A stretch of 64,000 bases of DNA from Vermamoeba vermiformis (lineage: Eukaryota). Below, piece after piece: positions 52,772 through 64,000 of this stretch. Each line of letters opens with the position of its first letter. Within the stretch, counting starts at the first letter, position 1. A program made the position numbers and the translations under genes. The stretch lies in contig JBEWZL010000101.1 in NCBI GenBank assembly GCA_045837725.1, forward strand, positions 186,001-250,000. The letters are read 5' to 3'. The notes under the pieces are model-generated. The model made no database searches. It was given only the letters and a program-made list of their open reading frames with translations, and was not told the origin of the DNA.

Positions 52772-54581
52772 ATGTCAAGGCAGCAACCACAACAGCGGAA
52801 GAAGAATGTACGGAACGCTGTTCCATAGTATTATCTACTAATTATTACTACAGAATCCTGCGCCAGTAGCGCGGTCTAATGGCAATAGAGGGAAGGATCT
52901 ACCCGCGAACAAAAAAGCACCGATCCAAAACAATAAAAAAGAGGAAAAGCCAGTACCACCTCCTCAAAATAACAATACAAATGTAACGAATACAGTACCA
53001 CCAACACCACAGCCAGCCCCTCCAAAAAAAGAAATAAAGTCGTGGTCAGATCTCTTTGCAAAAGAAAAAGCTGCGTCACAAGCAGCAGAAGAGCAAGCAC
53101 AAACTAGGAAAATATTAGCTGCGATCACTCTCAAAGGTAATATTTTAATATAAAATAATTGTGAAAATTTGATAATTCGCGCTTATTTACCAAACTATTT
53201 TGCGCGTTGACAAACAATTATTATGATTTATTAAATATAATACAGCCGTATAAAAATAATTTCAAAATTGTGGAAGTTATTTCTGAAATTTTTCACACTT
53301 CAGAGGCACTCGACAAGAACCAAGTGGCCCCTGCGCCGATTTATTTCGTGCCTCGTGGATTGAACAACAAAGACACCAAATGTTTTTTGAACGTTTCTGT
53401 GCAGTCTTTAATGGCCTGTCAACCATTTGTGCGCTGGCTCGCAAGTTTGGACAATGTAAATATCACACCCAACGAGTTCCCAGCCCTCGGACGAGTGTAC
53501 GTACCACTGCTTAGCCCTTGATTATCATGTTATTAACCTGTCATTAACAGAGTGCAATTCTTCCGAGAGTTTGAACGCGTTGAACCCAAGCCCAAACCCG
53601 CCGTCAGTGCTTCAAATGCTAAGGGCAACACCGCCAAGAATACGAACAACAGCGGTCCACTCAGTGAAGAGATGATTAAATTAGGCTTTGCATTCACGCC
53701 TGATTACTTGCACGAGCTGTTAACAACCTTCAATCCTATTGCAAGTGATTTTCAAGAAGACACGCAAGAGTTTATGATCTTCTTGCTGGATATGATGCAT
53801 TCAGAGCTGTTACGAGCTGTGGGGCCTAACAAGAAGACCATCACGATATCACAAACTACTGCTGACGAGGACGATGAATGGGAAGAGGTCGGCAAGAAGA
53901 ACAAGAGTGCTGTGGTGATTACGAAAGCCGACACATTTGACGAGTCAAAAATCTCAGAAATGTTCTCGGGCAAAATGCGCAGTATCGTCAACAAGAAAGG
54001 TCAAAAGTCCTCTGCCAGCATTCAGCCCTTCTATTGCTTGCATTTAGACATCGAGGTACGATATAATCAATTTTACTTTAATACAATGTGTCTCATAATA
54101 TGCCTTAAAGTTCCCACAAATCAACAGCGTGGAAGACGCACTCGATTTTTTGATGACAAAGGAGCGCTTAGATGACTTCCACGACTCGAAGAACAAGACT
54201 GAGATTCGTGCCTCGAAGCAAATGTCAATTGAAGTGTTGCCACCAGTGCTCATCTTGCACTTGAAGCGATTCAGCTTTGGTTTGCAAGGTGCTGAGAAGG
54301 TCCAAAAGTCAGTCAGTTACCCGCTCTCGTTGAAGATCCGTCCAGCGTGGCTGTCTAGCGAAAAGAAATATACTGCACAGCAACGTACTTACAGCCTCGT
54401 AGCAGTAGTGTCGCACTTGGGTCAAGAGGTCGCAGGTGGTCATTATACTTGCGATATTAGACAAGCGAATGGCCAATGGTTGTACTTCGACGATCATCGT
54501 GTCACGCGATCTAGTCCTGAAAGCGTTACTAACCGCAAGGCATACATCTTAGTCTATCAAATGAGTACTTACGATGATTGA
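52772..54581 (+). CDS. USP10: Ubiquitin-specific protease, USP10/Ubp3-like
   Basis: KSWSDLF; Cys box PRGLNNKDTKCFLN; QEDTQEF; LHLKRF; His box SHLG...GGHY; FDD. Confidence 0.88.
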
Positions 54582-56778: not shown

Positions 56779-58608
56779 ATGTCCACATCATTTATATCAA
56801 GAGCATTATTACAAAGGCAGTGTCGAGGGGTAATCAAATAATTCAAATAATTTTTACGTTACCATCAAAATTAATAACAAGCCAGGCCTTATAATTATTT
56901 TAAAATAATGAGCATCGTATACTATTTTCTATAATATCCAAAATGTTGATAATTAATTGATGTCGATCTCTGCGATCTAGCAACTGACAACTTTCATAGT
57001 TATTCTCACGACGCAAACGAAGGAATTACTCAACAGATTTACGAGGTGAAGCACTGAAAATAGTTCAACGATTAAAACAACGCACCTTTGAAGAAGCACA
57101 GTCGAATGGATCTACCCCACTCGTTGAAAACAGCACAAATACAGCGAGTGCCACAATCAATGCGGCTGTCAATGCAGCTCTGAATGACATTATGACACCG
57201 CACAGTCCTCACTTGACGCAAGAACAAATCAGAACGCTGCAGCAGAGTATCGCACAAGACGCGGCCAATCTGAAGCAGCACGTGACACAAGCCTTCGAGC
57301 TGTATCACCGCATTGAGCGCCATCAAGACATATTGAAGCAGAGCAATGTCTCAGACATCGGGCCCAACATTCAAGCGTGGCTCAAAAAGAGTGACACGAG
57401 CGATCAAGTGCTGACCATGCACCGCGATCTCATGCAGCAGCTCAGCGTGGACGATATTTTCAACGAGACTGGTGTAACTGAGACACGACCTGAGCCCACC
57501 ACTGCTACGTCGGTCATCAAAGACGCCAACACATTTGCAGCTGTTCTGGGCCTCGAGAAAATGGCCACCTTTCATCACATGTCCACACCTGCTGTCACGA
57601 AACACTTGCAAAGTCTGATGCTTGCAGGTGATGTCAAGCAAGCTGTCGTGCATGCGTCCATTGCACTCGACCAAGTACGTTACTGCTAAATTAAGAAAAC
57701 TTATTTTGACACGCTCTACTAGGTCAAAGCAGCGGACATCAAATTTTTCACCATGTTGTTGTATATATTCAGAGGACGCAAGAACACCATGTTGATTCGC
57801 AAAACAGTTGATCGAATCAAGCGTGAGTTCCCAGACCCCTTGCAATACGACGCCAAGTTGTGCACGCTGTTGCTGCAAGTCTACGGTGAACTCGGTGATC
57901 TCAAACAACTCGCGGCTCTCATGCAAGACATGCGCAGACTTAACATTCCTATTGACATTCATGTGTATAATACTTTGATCAACATCTTCATCAGCTACAA
58001 TGACCGCAACAACGTGCTGCGCATCTTGGAAGAAATGAGAAAGTCGAACATTGAGCCCAACTCCGTGACATTTGCCGCGCTATTGAAGTACTTCGCAGAG
58101 CAAGGTGCGTCAAGTTATAATAGTATAATTATTACGGAGACTAATAGTGCGCAGGTGACATTGACCAGACGATCAGTCTCGCGCTACTGGCCTCCAAACA
58201 AGAGCTGTCACTCGACACCCTTCTGTCCAAGCTGTTGGTCTATTTCACGCGCACTGGTCGACCAGGCACTACCATCAGATTGCTGCGCGAGTTGTATCAA
58301 AACAAATTGAGAATTGGCGTGTCGTTCTACGTGCCAGTAATGCAACGTAAGTCCGTTCATCCTTGACATATTTATCTGACACTTCTTTAGGCTTGCGTGA
58401 GTTGAAAAATATCCGCGACTTGTTGGAAGTGTATGCCATTGCACGAGAGAACGGAGTTGAATTGCCTCAAGAAGCGTACATGTTCGTGCTCGATGTCGCC
58501 ACAGACAAGGACAATCGAGACATGGCGATGTCGGCTTTTGGTTACGGCAGCAAAGAAAAATCAAGCAATAATCTTCTCGACAGAATTCGAGACAAAGTGT
58601 TGAAATAA
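56779..58608 (+). CDS. Pentatricopeptide-repeat (PPR) protein, probably mitochondrial
   Basis: DIHVYNTLINIF...EEMRKSNIEPNSVTFAALLK 35-aa PPR pattern; presequence-like start (tentative). Confidence 0.85.
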
Positions 58609-58641: not shown

Positions 58642-60273
58642 TTACTTGTCAGATTCGCCGAATGTGAATACTAAGTGCTCTTCATACTTTTCCTTGTGCA
58701 GCATGTCTTGTACGGCCGTAGCAAAGCCAGTAGGGCCACAAATTAAGATTTGTGTGTCGTCACTTGGTCGCGGCAAATGTTCACGCAATAGCGCACGATT
58801 GATTCTGCCACTGCCGTTAGTCAGGTGCAAGTTGAGTCGTTCTGGGAATTTTGCACTGAGTTGCAGCAATTCATCGCGGAAAATTATGTCTCGTTCGGCG
58901 GAGTTAGCGTAGATGAGTGAAAATTTGGTTTTGTCGTTCGAATTTGCTAGCGCTGTCATGAGCACACTCAGTACTGGTGTGATGCCAGTGCCACCAGCAA
59001 TCAATCCAATAGAGTGATATTCATTGGGGTAAAAATAGAACCCGCCCATGGGTCCCATCATCTCCACGGTGTCACCAATGCTCAGCGAATCGTGCATCCA
59101 CGAAGACATAGCACCATTAGGGTACTTCTTGACAGCCAAGGCAATCGTGCCACTAATATTCATGGCTTGCATCATGTGGTTGTCGTGAGCTCCATTGCCA
59201 AAGTATCGCACGAGTGACGTGACGGGTGTGTAGGGACGAAGGACGAGTTGATTGTTGATGCGCTGTCGTAGCACCACGTGATGGCCAGGGAACATCAGCA
59301 GATTCGCTTTGACGGGCAGTTGAAAGACAAAAAGTGCCGTGTTGTGCGTCAATTCTTGTTTTTGTACGAGTTTGACTGGCACGAAATCGCGTCTGTAAGT
59401 GACGAGCTGATGTTCGTAGTCTTGGTCTTGTGCGTCGAATGGCGCTTTGGGCAGGGAGATGTAATGTGATTCGGTGTTGACTTGATTGCCTCGCTCGCGA
59501 CGAATATGGAATTCTATAATAATGATGGCCAAGGTGAAGAATAAAGGAGCAATAATCGCGAGTCCTTCTCCCGGTTTCAGGCTTGGAGCCATAGCCAGCA
59601 ATGCAACAATAGCGGGTCTCATAGCAACTATTACATAAGACAAAAAGTACGCTCTGAACATCCACTCGCGGTGTCGATCCACATTGTACTGAAATTTAAT
59701 GTAGTACCAGCCAAATGCACCCTGGCAATATGTGTCAGTTACATGTAATATAGCTAATATTCAGGAGTACTTACGCATACACCCCAGCCAATGAACATTA
59801 CAACACCATCGATTGCTAAAGTTAATCCTCCTTCAGTTTCACCGCTGAAGCAGATGATAAATCCACCAATAATAGATATGAATAGACAAGGCAATGCAAT
59901 GTAACCCATCACTCGATGCGCTGTCGGGTTTTTGGCGCGGATGTAAGAGAATTGTTGAAGAGCGCCCAATATAAGCCACACACTTCCGGGAAATGCATGG
60001 ATAAAAAATCCAACTTTACCCCAAAGCCCAGGATAGGCTACTTCTAGGTTGGATATAGGGGGCATGAGCATTAAAATGCCAACGTAACCGATGGCAAACA
60101 GGACGGCCACAACTAACAAGATCCACCGCAGTGCTGCCCACATTCGGAGACGGTGCTGAAGTGGTATATAGACACTTAAGTGCCTTTTAGCTTTTTGCTC
60201 TAAGTGTCAACCGTTAACTACTGTCAGATCTTAACTAATTAAACTTACTTTTAATGTCGTATTCAAAGTTCAT
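58642..60273 (-). CDS. DUF2306-like membrane domain fused to an NADH-cytochrome b5 reductase domain
   Basis: HAFPGSVWLILGALQ...AHRVMGY...HREWMFRAY, then RPYTP, KKYPNGAMS, IAGGTGITP, ICGP. Confidence 0.85.
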
Positions 60274-60712: not shown

Positions 60713-63700
60713 TCACTTTGAAGGCTTCTTCACAAAATATTTCTTGACATCAAGCAACTGACCGTTCTCAATCGAGTCCAACAGCCACTTGCTGTGCACA
60801 ACTTTGAGCCGCGCGTTCGTTGCGAGACAGGCGTCGATCATGCCATCCCACTCGTCGTCAGTCACGAGGTGTGTGGCCACTGTGAAGTCGTCGTCTTCTT
60901 TCATCACATCGCCTCCGTCACTGCACAGTTGCGCGTTAGTCACGTGTTTGGCTGGGGCAAGTGTATTACTCACGCTTGAATGGCCCCACTGAGCAGATCC
61001 TTGTCGTTGTCACAGCTGCCATAGAACATGACGTGCACATTCGAGAACAGCTCTTTCTTTTTGCCGCTGGACTTGGCTGTCTTGGCTGGTGTCACATCCA
61101 CTTTGGCTTTCTTTTGAGGTGGTTCATCGCTGTGGTCGTCTTCATCCAGCGGTCGTTTTACCTAACGTCGTATTAGTCAAGAACAATAACACTAGGGTGC
61201 ACGTACTCCCGTCACTTTCTTCGCTGCGGCATTGTTAGCACCGTTGTTGTTGACAGCTTTGACAGGTGACTTGGATCCGAACTCGTACACGTAGACTGCA
61301 ATGCCGTGCGAGGCAAGCGTCTCGTTCAATTTGCGCTCGACTTGTTTCCAGTCCATATTTGGAATAGCAGCATCGAATTTGGGCACGTGCACGGATGTAA
61401 TTTTCTTGTAATCAGCCAGTGATTTCACCTATTTTGTGCGTCAATTAAGTGCACGGTCTTCATGTAAACAGCAATGTACTTACACCAAACAAACACCGCT
61501 CGAATTCTTTGATATCAAATGGAGGAATGCCGCTCTTGGTTTGACTCTGACACACGAGGGACAACACAAACAACTTGCCTTCATCTGCCGTAGTGCGTTA
61601 GTTAGGAGTCAGCATAGTGCATCATTAACGTACCTTGTGCATTGGATACTTTTGATGTGACAATGCTGCCGAGCTTGAGAGTGGCCGTGCTCGTGTAAGC
61701 TTTTTCAGGCTCAGGATAAGCACGTGAAATAGCACCAAAGACACCTCGTTGCGGCCACTTGCCCGAGTTATCTACAATGTGCATGATGGCACGTGCTTCA
61801 TTGGCTTGGTGCACTTGTGGCCGAGTCACATCTCCTTCAACTTTAATGATGGAAGCGTTGTCACTCACATCGGCCATCTCTTCGTCATCGTCGTTAGTGA
61901 TGGTGTTCGCTTTGCTCGTTGCATTGTTGTTGTTATTATTGTTGTTCTTAGCAAACGCTGTGATTTTTGGTTGGTTCTTTGGTGCTGCAGGTGTAGCTTT
62001 GGTCTTGGCGGGTGTTTTTTTCTTTTCTTTGGGCTCATCGTCTTCATCACCATTCTCTTCAATGTCCTCTTCTTCACCTTGCTCCTCTTCTTCTTTCGGA
62101 TCCGAACTAAAATGAAAAATTAGAACATGAACTGCGACAAAAAGGGCACTACTTACTCGACAATAATTGACTTGGAGACAATTAAATCGAACTCCTTGAG
62201 GTTCGTAGCGTTCTCAGGGTCTTTGTCGTCTCTGATTTTAACAATTCTCGGGAATCGAATTGACACTGCATTAGCGGTGTGCTTGATTGATCGAGAGAAA
62301 CTCGTGCCTCGAATTTCAAACACAAATGATCTGTGCAAGGTTAGACTTAATAAAACATCTTCTAGCTACTCACTTTAGCGGGTCTTTCACGACGTAATCA
62401 GGGGCCAGTGTTGAGTTGCAATCGAGCCAATAGGGCACTTTATCTGCTTGGCGCTCAATCTTCTCGAGATCAAATTTGTTTTGAATGTCTTTGAGTGTTT
62501 TCAGATCAAATCCACTGCCTGCCTTGCACACTGTCTTCCACTGCCCAGATTTCTCGTCAAATGTGGCCATTAAGAAAGTCGATAACAAGCCGGCCTAGTC
62601 ACTGAATTAGATTCACTCATCGTGCAAATAATCAGCACGTACCTTGTTGCCCTTGCCATAATACAGACCAACTACTACAAGGTCTACTGAATCAGCCATG
62701 GCACCGCCCTCCAAGTAGTCCTATTTGTCGTTAATAAGGACGTTATGGTAATGACAGCCTGTACCTTTTTCAATTTGAGCCAGTGTCGCATGTTGGGTTT
62801 GTAAATGCCCTTGGTATCTTTGATCACGAGACCTTCAAGGCCATCAGCCATCACACGGCGCATCTCCTTGTCGACTTCTTCAGCTTTAGTGGCCTCGACG
62901 TACTCGCCGATTTCAATTCTGTCTTGGATAACTTTGACATTTTCAGCCAACAACTTCTTTCTCTTGTCGAGGGGTGTATCGATCAAGGACTCGCCGTTGA
63001 GGTACAGAATATCGAAGGCAAAGAAACAGATCGTTGCATTGGTGAATTTCTTCTTTTTGTTCTTGCCGATGGTACCAAACGGCAGCGGTTGATGCTTGAC
63101 TGTGTCCATCAACAGAATTTCACCGTCGAGAATAATCGTCTCTGCTTCAACAGCCTGAGGAAGGGACTCACGGACCTCTTCTACTTTGTCTTCTTTTACT
63201 GGCTTCAAATTACGCGAATAAAATGCCAGTTCGTCGCCGTTCTTGTGGATTTGCACACGTTCACCATCGTATTTGATTTCAACGTACATTCCATTCTTGC
63301 ATCGCTTCACGCACTCCTCGGCACCGTCACAAGGCCTATAGTATATTAGATCGGTAATAATAACGTGGTGAGTGATACGTACTTGGCCAACATGGGCTTG
63401 ATCGGTGACATGACACTCGTGCCCACGCTGAATCCTTTCTTAAGCGCTGGCTTCTTTTTCTTTCCGTTGCCTCCCTCTTCATCCTCTTCGTTATCGTCAT
63501 TATTGTTGTTATTCTCTTCGTCATCAAGTTCTTGTTTTTGAACTTTTTCTATGACTTTCTTCAAGTTATGTGAGTGCGTGTACGCTGAAATAATGTTAGT
63601 CAACAGGTATGTGAATAGAAAGCGAGACCTACCATCGAAAGCCTTTGGATGGAGGGCATTCAGTACGAATTTTGAACCAATATTGATCTTCAAATCGTGT

Positions 63701-64000
63701 GCCATGATTTTGCAGATGAACTTCAGATCCACTAAGAGACGTTAGCTATTGAGCATTGTGATGCGAAAATATCTTACTTGACGTGCACTTAGGTAAGAAT
63801 TTAGCGAAGTGGTGGACTTGATCGTCTTCTTTCGTTATTTTGGTCAATTCCTGGAATAATTGTTAGTGGTTGCTCGCTGTAGCTGCAATCGTACCTCTAA
63901 CCATGTATCAACTTCTTTCAATGTAATTGTACTTCTTTTTGCACTAGTCTCGCTTTCTTCGAAGAACTGCAAAATTGAATTAGAGAAAAATCGGGCAGAT
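60713..64000 (-). CDS. LIG3: DNA ligase III-like ATP-dependent ligase with macrodomain and BRCT; 5' part lies outside the window
   Basis: KPMLA, EIKYDGERVQIHK, ILDGE, GLEGLVIK, RHWLKLKKDYL, SIRFPR..RDDK; C-terminal BRCT (VHSKWLLDSI). Confidence 0.9.

Follow-up and report, generated by a model that had tools for sequence, protein, structure and literature searches.

In the stretch of Vermamoeba vermiformis DNA analyzed here (64,000 nucleotides, positions 186,001 to 250,000 of contig JBEWZL010000101.1, assembly GCA_045837725.1; called the window in the following), a gene was identified that encodes a DUF2306 membrane domain fused to a cytochrome b5 reductase-type flavoprotein. Judged by its sequence, the fusion protein is a member both of DUF2306 and of the b5 reductase-like group and belongs neither to the NOX nor to the cytochrome b561 family, and it would work in a flavocytochrome b-like manner. 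Tentatively, we read it as a self-contained membrane flavocytochrome that could act as an oxygenase, using O2 on a lipophilic substrate.

The gene lies on the minus strand (60273-58642) and consists of three exons with 1530 nt in total, encoding 509 amino acids with a single terminal stop (Table 1). An alternative Met to the probable start codon is present at position 60143. A first-pass annotation of this DNA had stated that the upstream exon joins in phase 0 and that the second part of the membrane domain shares an exon with the reductase. Both statements agree with the gene model: exons 1 and 2 comprise 450 nt, which places intron 2 in phase 0, and HREWMFRAY (59673-59647) as well as the entire reductase are found in one stop-free frame on exon 3.

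Table 1. Coordinates of the fusion gene and of the domains, motifs and residues of its product (positions within the window; counts refer to the rows of the conservation analysis)
Feature	Position	Strand	Description
Exon 1	60249..60273	(-)	25 nt; probable start codon at 60273
Intron 1	60200..60248	(-)	49 nt, GT..AG
Exon 2	59775..60199	(-)	DUF2306 helices 1-3 and most of helix 4
Intron 2	59722..59774	(-)	53 nt, phase 0, GT..AG
Exon 3	58642..59721	(-)	End of helix 4, helices 5-6, linker, reductase, stop codon
His76, helix 2, outer membrane half	59997..59999	(-)	30/30 fused, 67/68 unfused; putative sole ligand of the open site
Gln90 (His76+14)	59955..59957	(-)	29/30 fused, 68/68 unfused
Arg96 (His76+20)	59937..59939	(-)	30/30 fused, 66/68 unfused
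His103, start of helix 3, cytosolic side	59916..59918	(-)	30/30 fused, 68/68 unfused; putative heme ligand
Gly133, start of helix 4	59826..59828	(-)	Gly in 23/30 fused, 53/68 unfused
His167, start of helix 5, cytosolic side	59671..59673	(-)	30/30 fused, 67/68 unfused; putative heme ligand
Arg185 (His167+18), outer half of helix 5	59617..59619	(-)	29/30 fused, 64/68 unfused
Cytochrome b5 reductase-type FAD and NAD(P)H domains	58645..59391	(-)	Pfam; RPYT 59238-59227, GGTGITP 58995-58975, CGP 58740-58732
C-terminal motif hydrophobic-G-x-x-D/G-basic	58645..58662	(-)	Typical of the fused family

Among four runs aligned to the gene, splicing was followed with the contigs of run X2, which stem from a close relative (95–99% alike) and are presumably of RNA origin. 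One of these contigs skips 58 bases at intron 2 with five letters in between, corresponding to a net gap of 53, and another ends at 60249 with a loose end of nine letters that equals 60191-60199 across intron 1. Furthermore, a GT..AG intron of 46–51 nt is present at the codon of intron 2 in four paralogues (C264, C81, C98, and C44). Two raw-read runs (X9 and X11) placed 14 and 27 reads on the gene, mostly less than 90% alike and too divergent to show expression.

In favor of a modeling artefact, by which two genes or a chance read-through would have been taken for one gene, no single contig among the pieces aligned to the gene joins the membrane and the reductase part. Nevertheless, helices 5-6 and the reductase share one open frame, the genome contains three fused copies, and both domains occur together in 27 unspliced-looking or database proteins. 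An artefact is therefore extremely improbable, and the view of the first-pass annotation that the fusion is real is confirmed; the fusion is also conserved.

The genes around the fusion were also noted. A pentatricopeptide-repeat gene (57000-58608, (+), PPR_2 E 1e-15) ends with its stop 33 bases from that of the fusion gene and contains a 44-nt GT..AG intron (58347-58390), which is skipped in one contig. An ATP-dependent DNA ligase is encoded at 60713-63741 ((-), E 1e-56), whose downstream exons resemble macro and BRCT domains. A ubiquitin carboxyl-terminal hydrolase gene is located at 53537-54581 (+).

The N-terminal region is indeed DUF2306, as the first-pass annotation had proposed. A profile built solely from 49 bacterial DUF2306 proteins, obtained from a genome search, matches the spliced protein with 89.9 bits (E 8.4e-27); the alignment is colinear without a gap at the splice site, and the best of 1000 shuffles reached 8.0 bits. 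Exon 2 alone scores 46.6 bits on this profile and 27.7 bits on PF10067 (E 3.4e-6), which is below the Pfam cut-off of 31.6 because the intron interrupts the domain. The relative P0006, 54% identical over the membrane part, is above this cut-off with 44.7 bits. A search of the ESM Atlas with exon 2 returned DUF2306 clusters and, with these excluded, nothing usable. A search of the PDB sequences with a membrane-only profile of 52 rows gave 0 matches up to E 10.

Six hydrophobic segments are located between residues 35 and 221 of the 509-residue protein. AlphaFold models of two relatives, not of the protein in the window itself, likewise display six helices, namely P0006 (pLDDT 85.5, modeled with a read-through intron) and the full-length P0041 (pLDDT 91.2, pTM 0.86; 34%/39% identical). 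A complex prediction of the P0041 halves with heme and FAD, run without alignments, scored 0.01 and speaks neither for nor against an interaction.

Conservation was counted over 30 fused and 68 unfused rows covering both halves, after seven cluster mates or truncated rows and nine partial rows had been dropped. The three histidines of the membrane part singled out by the first-pass annotation (IHAF, AHR, and RHRE) correspond to H76, H103, and H167; each is invariant in the fused rows (30/30), and all three are present in 49/49 independently chosen bacterial DUF2306 rows. Within DUF2306 a fixed spacing is seen, consisting of His, Gly at +4, Gln at +14, Arg at +20, His at +27, and Gly at +31, and the motifs H-x3-G-x9-Q-x5-R-x6-H-x3-G and HR-x-W-M-x-R are present in the protein of the window. 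Gly107 is kept in 30/30 fused and 68/68 unfused rows and Glu220 in 28/30 and 48/68, respectively. No further His or Cys column occurs in at least half of the fused or of the unfused rows, Met varies at columns 171 and 184, and across these rows no fourth conserved His, Met, or Cys is seen on the outer side. His222 was considered as a ligand and rejected, since it is found in only 2/30 rows.

The counts of Lys and Arg are high at the N-terminal flank, in loops 2-3 and 4-5, and at the C-terminal flank, and low in the remaining loops, which would place both termini as well as loops 2-3 and 4-5 in the cytosol. His103 and His167 would then lie on the same, cytosolic side as the reductase and His76 in the outer half of the membrane.

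The reductase part of exon 3 is above the Pfam cut-offs for FAD_binding_6 (E 1.9e-20) and NAD_binding_1 (E 2.1e-21), and together with RxY[TS], GGTGxxP, and CG these two domains mark it as cytochrome b5 reductase-like. Its best solved sequence relative is yeast Cbr1 (7ROM, E 7e-35). R312, G394, G396, and G479 are kept in 28–30 of the 30 fused rows and RxY[TS] and GxGxxP in nearly all of them. The C-terminal motif is shared by 25/28 fused relatives and both fused paralogues.

NADH had been named as the electron donor, which does not follow from the sequence. The loop with the NADH-selecting Asp239 of rat b5R is deleted, leaving a 9-residue gap relative to 1I7P, and four relatives carry Ser-Arg at this place. 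The exchange D239T is described as a switch from NAD to NADP, and S920D/R932S in Neurospora nitrate reductase as the reverse (PMC5817062). The donor is therefore best termed NAD(P)H.

A PF10067 search of the 43 Mb assembly revealed six DUF2306 loci, three of them fused and three unfused. The fused paralogue C264 is 74% identical in the membrane and 71% in the reductase part, the fused paralogue C81 59% in both; relative to C264, 79/134 changed codons of the membrane part and 93/166 of the reductase are synonymous. No reductase was found within the 6.5–7 kb around each of the unfused C98, C44, and C235. Two other b5-reductase-like genes exist in the genome, so the fusion is not its only such reductase.

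Some details of these loci deserve a record of their own. C235 (L021:3864-4946, (-)) is a multi-exon unfused DUF2306 gene of a different subfamily with all three His motifs visible. Just beyond the stop of C81 (L022, about 1630-1780) lies a run of about 150 T, possibly an assembly artefact. C257 (L024:2076-5131, (-)) gave a PF00970 match, and the gene resembles a complete nitrate reductase with molybdopterin, cytochrome b5, and reductase parts. Another FNR-type domain is present at C179 (L025:2124-3817, (+)), presumably preceded by a pyridoxamine-phosphate-oxidase-like FMN domain.

The fusion is not restricted to this amoeba. Longer proteins were first sought by a word-based comparison with exon 2, which gave none in 761 candidates; a later full HMMER search gave many. 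Using an exon 2 profile from five paralogues, 155 proteins were obtained at E ≤0.001 among 1.84 billion representatives; among the matches listed 28/150 are fused relatives, as are 13 of the best 25. The domains were scanned in the 39 listed proteins of at least 294 residues: 27 have DUF2306 above the cut-off together with FAD_binding_6, and a 28th has a divergent reductase recognized by a custom profile. Organism names were obtained for 11 of the 27, covering chytrids, blastoclads, and oomycetes (Nowakowskiella (2), Rhizophlyctis, Chytriomyces, Rhizoclosmatium, Cladochytrium, Allomyces (2), Blastocladiella, Aphanomyces, and Saprolegnia), and three more stem from eukaryote transcript sets. No bacterial name appeared among the 27 fused proteins looked up, which are labeled in the databases as hypothetical, FAD-binding FR-type, or b5 reductase.

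The tree computed from 77 membrane domains places all 30 fused rows to one side of a branch with an SH-aLRT of 98, with the unfused C98 and C44 as well as P0006 nested on the fused side, and the corresponding branch of a 134-row tree has an SH-aLRT of 91. Both are quick, unrooted trees without bootstrap, and their sample was drawn with a profile from the fused clade. One old fusion with later losses fits this topology.

Among the fused proteins, P0033, P0048, and P0052 (748–798 amino acids) are extended at the N-terminus by about 190 Cys-rich residues, a region without a Pfam match. Other arrangements noted are a tandem duplication of DUF2306 and DUF2306 with extra unannotated membrane regions (P0038; P0072; L043:799-2028; L101:2475-4055).

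In the DUF2306/PF10067 literature covered, to which most subscription journals do not belong, no description of a fusion of DUF2306 with a reductase was found, and the accessible parts of PMC12895699, 10.64898/2025.12.11.692455, PMC12525009, PMC12502698, PMC8239418, PMC13344008, and PMC8262933 do not mention it.

In bacteria, DUF2306 is above the Pfam cut-off in 83/401 and 41/201 sampled genomes of two phyla, the former tally including one unpublished genome. The gene neighborhoods of the bacterial members, suggested by the first-pass annotation as a source of information, yielded no partner: in a profile search of 367 kb, a reductase lay near DUF2306 in 0/80 loci, using a profile of 36 rows that may include a non-reductase row and that recovered 4/4 control loci. 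Also, neither FAD_binding_6 nor NAD_binding_1 was found among the 150 of 178 neighbor frames searched at 52 bacterial loci. Long bacterial DUF2306 frames were considered as reductase fusions and rejected, as they contain extra membrane helices or unannotated extensions. Since bacteria yield no reductase partner, the fusion looks eukaryotic, and the empty bacterial loci together with the two close paralogues lacking a reductase indicate that DUF2306 can work without a fused partner.

AraC-type regulators flank 8/17 proteobacterial DUF2306 loci (32 frames scanned), with otherwise mixed neighbors, which suggests an inducible single-gene response. The AraC-adjacent subfamily comprises proteobacterial DUF2306 proteins of 270–310 amino acids (L104, L106, L108, L109, and L111-L114). 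In one phylum, YARHG-domain genes adjoin DUF2306 in 6/23 loci (L081, L082, L083, L085, L089, and L090).

For the working of the membrane domain, cytochrome b561 offers a guide. Here, four histidines (H1-H4) are located in helices 2-5, and H2 and H4 hold the cytoplasmic heme; an Arg at H1+20 binds the propionate of this heme (Arg70 in Dcytb), and a Gln at H3+14 as well as Gly residues at H3+4 and H4+4 help to position the hemes (PMC10691727). Residues of this type are found in DUF2306, namely Arg at His+20, Gln at His+14, and Gly at His+4; the basic residue at H1+20 is Arg96, and the helix 2-3 hairpin mixes marks of both b561 hairpins. In either b561 register, His103 and His167 would form the cytosolic pair, His76 would stand alone, and Gly133 would occupy the place of the fourth ligand.

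Based on this, a sequence of three steps can be proposed for the fusion protein. Very probably, NAD(P)H would reduce the FAD, from where the electrons are passed on to the membrane domain. A bis-His heme b of the b561 kind is likely to be ligated by His103 and His167, with Arg96 contacting one of its propionates. The last step is the least certain and makes the whole scheme tentative: His76 alone may ligate another heme, five-coordinate and located in the outer leaflet, so that the enzyme could act as a monooxygenase, either an epoxidase or a hydroxylase. A Gly at the place of the fourth b561 ligand would leave room for O2 and the substrate, and this room is what would allow a monooxygenase to work. 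By analogy, such an enzyme would resemble a P450 with its reductase attached, but built on a b561-like scaffold.

The first-pass annotation had listed DUF2306 as a family of unknown function, which is outdated. The fungal DUF2306 protein PraC, described in 2026, is needed for the epoxidation of pramanicin-A in Aspergillus nidulans, and PraC alone turns pramanicin-A into the epoxide in vivo (PMC12895699). Its authors leave the redox partner open and also allow a scaffold role, and the accessible text makes no mention of heme or histidine (PMC12895699). PraC (EKG19783.1) has 393 amino acids and five predicted helices and is described without a reductase, and its likeness to the fusion protein is one of the shared domain; it may be far from the fused clade. 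Functionally tested DUF2306 members other than PraC were not found in the literature covered. A structure-prediction screen lists DUF2306 among the predicted heme-binding families (preprint 10.64898/2025.12.11.692455), and a catalytic heme held by one His is known from the membrane enzyme styrene oxide isomerase (PMC12502698).

In a wider and somewhat more speculative sense, DUF2306 proteins could be widespread membrane heme oxygenases with a three-His b561-like scaffold, comprising one electron-transfer heme and one open catalytic heme. The fusion would then represent the self-sufficient form, and a b5-reductase-type flavoprotein could be the missing partner of PraC.

Instead of an oxygenase, the protein might be an electron wire or reductase, which we regard as rather unlikely. 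Here, electrons would run from NAD(P)H via FAD and the His103/His167 heme to a quinone, a ferric chelate, the ascorbyl radical, or O2, with His76 either binding a quinone or flavin or sharing an outer heme with its counterpart in a second subunit. The NOX-like layout of six helices and a C-terminal FAD/NAD(P)H domain, alignable end to end with SpNOX, speaks for such a wire, as does the fact that b561 proteins are one-electron transmembrane oxidoreductases; MsrQ, with one heme, FMN, and quinone and fed by a cytosolic flavin reductase, would be a precedent (PMC12525009). However, the heme and FAD motifs of NOX are absent, the match to SpNOX has an rmsd near 9, and the only tested DUF2306 protein adds an oxygen atom. 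Moreover, with a single conserved His on the outer side and no fourth His, Met, or Cys, a two-heme transmembrane wire is not buildable by one chain from conserved residues. Even less probable is a one-His heme engaged in redox-neutral or peroxide-driven chemistry (an isomerase, a peroxygenase, or the detoxification of a small inducer), for which the reductase would only set the state of the heme. Unfused copies are the rule in bacteria and arise again within the fused clade, the AraC-type regulators stand beside nearly half of the proteobacterial loci, and styrene oxide isomerase provides a model. Nevertheless, the conserved cytosolic His pair and Arg96 would be unneeded in such an enzyme, and RxY[TS] and GxGxxP are retained in nearly all of the fused rows.

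The histidines could also bind a non-heme metal, copper or iron, for metal handling or reduction like the related DUF420/CtaM family. This fits to DUF420 matches at E ≤1 in 28/52 unfused members, which are weak (best 3e-10), and to the proposal that CtaM supports copper export (PMC13344008), but the three histidines do not share one side of the membrane, heme-contact positions are matched by Arg96 and the Gly/Gln spacing, and DUF2306 was picked by the heme-binding screen (10.64898/2025.12.11.692455). A metal site is accordingly considered improbable, more so than the redox-neutral heme. Finally, DUF2306 might do no more than anchor or scaffold an ordinary cytochrome b5 reductase whose acceptor is free cytochrome b5. 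The soluble domain is folded like a typical b5 reductase (Z 29.8 against 7ROM), and the scaffold role allowed by the PraC authors would agree with this. Against it stand the invariant buried His, Gln, and Arg residues, the two other b5-reductase-like genes of the genome, and the C-terminal extension of the fused family's own, which render a pure anchor very improbable.

A natural and conserved fusion to a reductase suggests that the DUF2306 family takes electrons, with the three histidines as candidate ligands. DUF2306 is common, yet it has one functional report, in which neither a cofactor, a catalytic residue, nor a redox partner is assigned; the fusion provides a one-chain enzyme that could be assayed with NAD(P)H alone. 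If the preferred reading with an open heme is true, a membrane oxygenase scaffold would exist besides the P450s and the di-iron enzymes. If instead the protein is an electron wire, chytrids, oomycetes, and other protists would possess a family of flavocytochromes b alongside NOX.

Compared with known systems, the analogy to NOX and ferric reductases drawn by the first-pass annotation is limited to the architecture. The architecture of six helices and a C-terminal cytosolic FAD/NAD(P)H domain stands, and the model of the full-length relative aligns with SpNOX from end to end (Z 19.6 over 337 residues, rmsd 8.9), although the rmsd indicates that mostly the reductase domain is matched. Two pairs of the form His-x12/14-His are required of NOX proteins, along with the motif H[PSA]F[TS] (PMC5676040). 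In the protein of the window, helices 3 and 5 lack such pairs and H[PSA]F[TS] is absent as well, and its reductase, unlike that of SpNOX (8QQ7) or NOX2, is of the b5-reductase type. The MsrQ/Fre system differs as well: MsrQ is a ferric-reductase-like domain whose partners are separate proteins and whose acceptor is MsrP, and its likeness to the fusion would be one of working. DUF420, proposed as the root of CtaA (PMC8239418), differs together with CtaM and heme A synthase by having four helices, a role in oxidase assembly, and no fused reductase.

The fusion protein resembles b561 (AtCytb561-B, 4O6Y/4O7G; Dcytb, 5ZLG) in its six helices, the inside location of both termini, and the histidines in helices 2, 3, and 5. 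In contrast to b561, a His is lacking where helix 4 begins, the presumed place of the third b561 His, any His in 124-142 being found in only 6/31 fused and 10/68 unfused rows, and a fused NAD(P)H reductase is present where b561 takes ascorbate as donor. PF03188 matches only 1/52 DUF2306 members (E 0.054). In Foldseek, the top three rows for the DUF2306 model are b561 chains, with weak values (E 0.08–0.15, TM 0.26), and VIA against b561 gave a Z of 7.3 and an rmsd of 5.4 over 159 residues, which is level with unrelated bundles. Aligning DUF2306 with b561 by hhalign resulted in a probability of 1.8%; as 301 bacterial genomes contained no PF03188 to deepen the b561 alignment, this is a weak test with three sequences, and the alignment retrieved no b561 from the PDB either. 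Outside DUF2306, the frame scoring highest on a helix 2-3 profile, out of 2272, is a b561 exon (E 1.3e-4, 18.7 bits, shuffles ≤6.1), over only 26 residues; the three other b561 frames of the genome had a background score or were not reported. A homology of DUF2306 and b561 is no more than plausible, and membership in b561 fails on the fourth His.

The reductase finds its counterpart in the NADH-cytochrome b5 reductases (yeast Cbr1, 7ROM; Physarum, 2EIX; human CYB5R3), with which it shares the FAD and NAD domains; the reductase of a relative's model alone superimposes on 7ROM with a Z of 29.8 and an rmsd of 1.8. In contrast to CYB5R, the Asp239 loop is gone and a G-x-x-D-basic C-terminal extension has been added, and where CYB5R has a single membrane anchor, the fusion protein has a six-helix domain.
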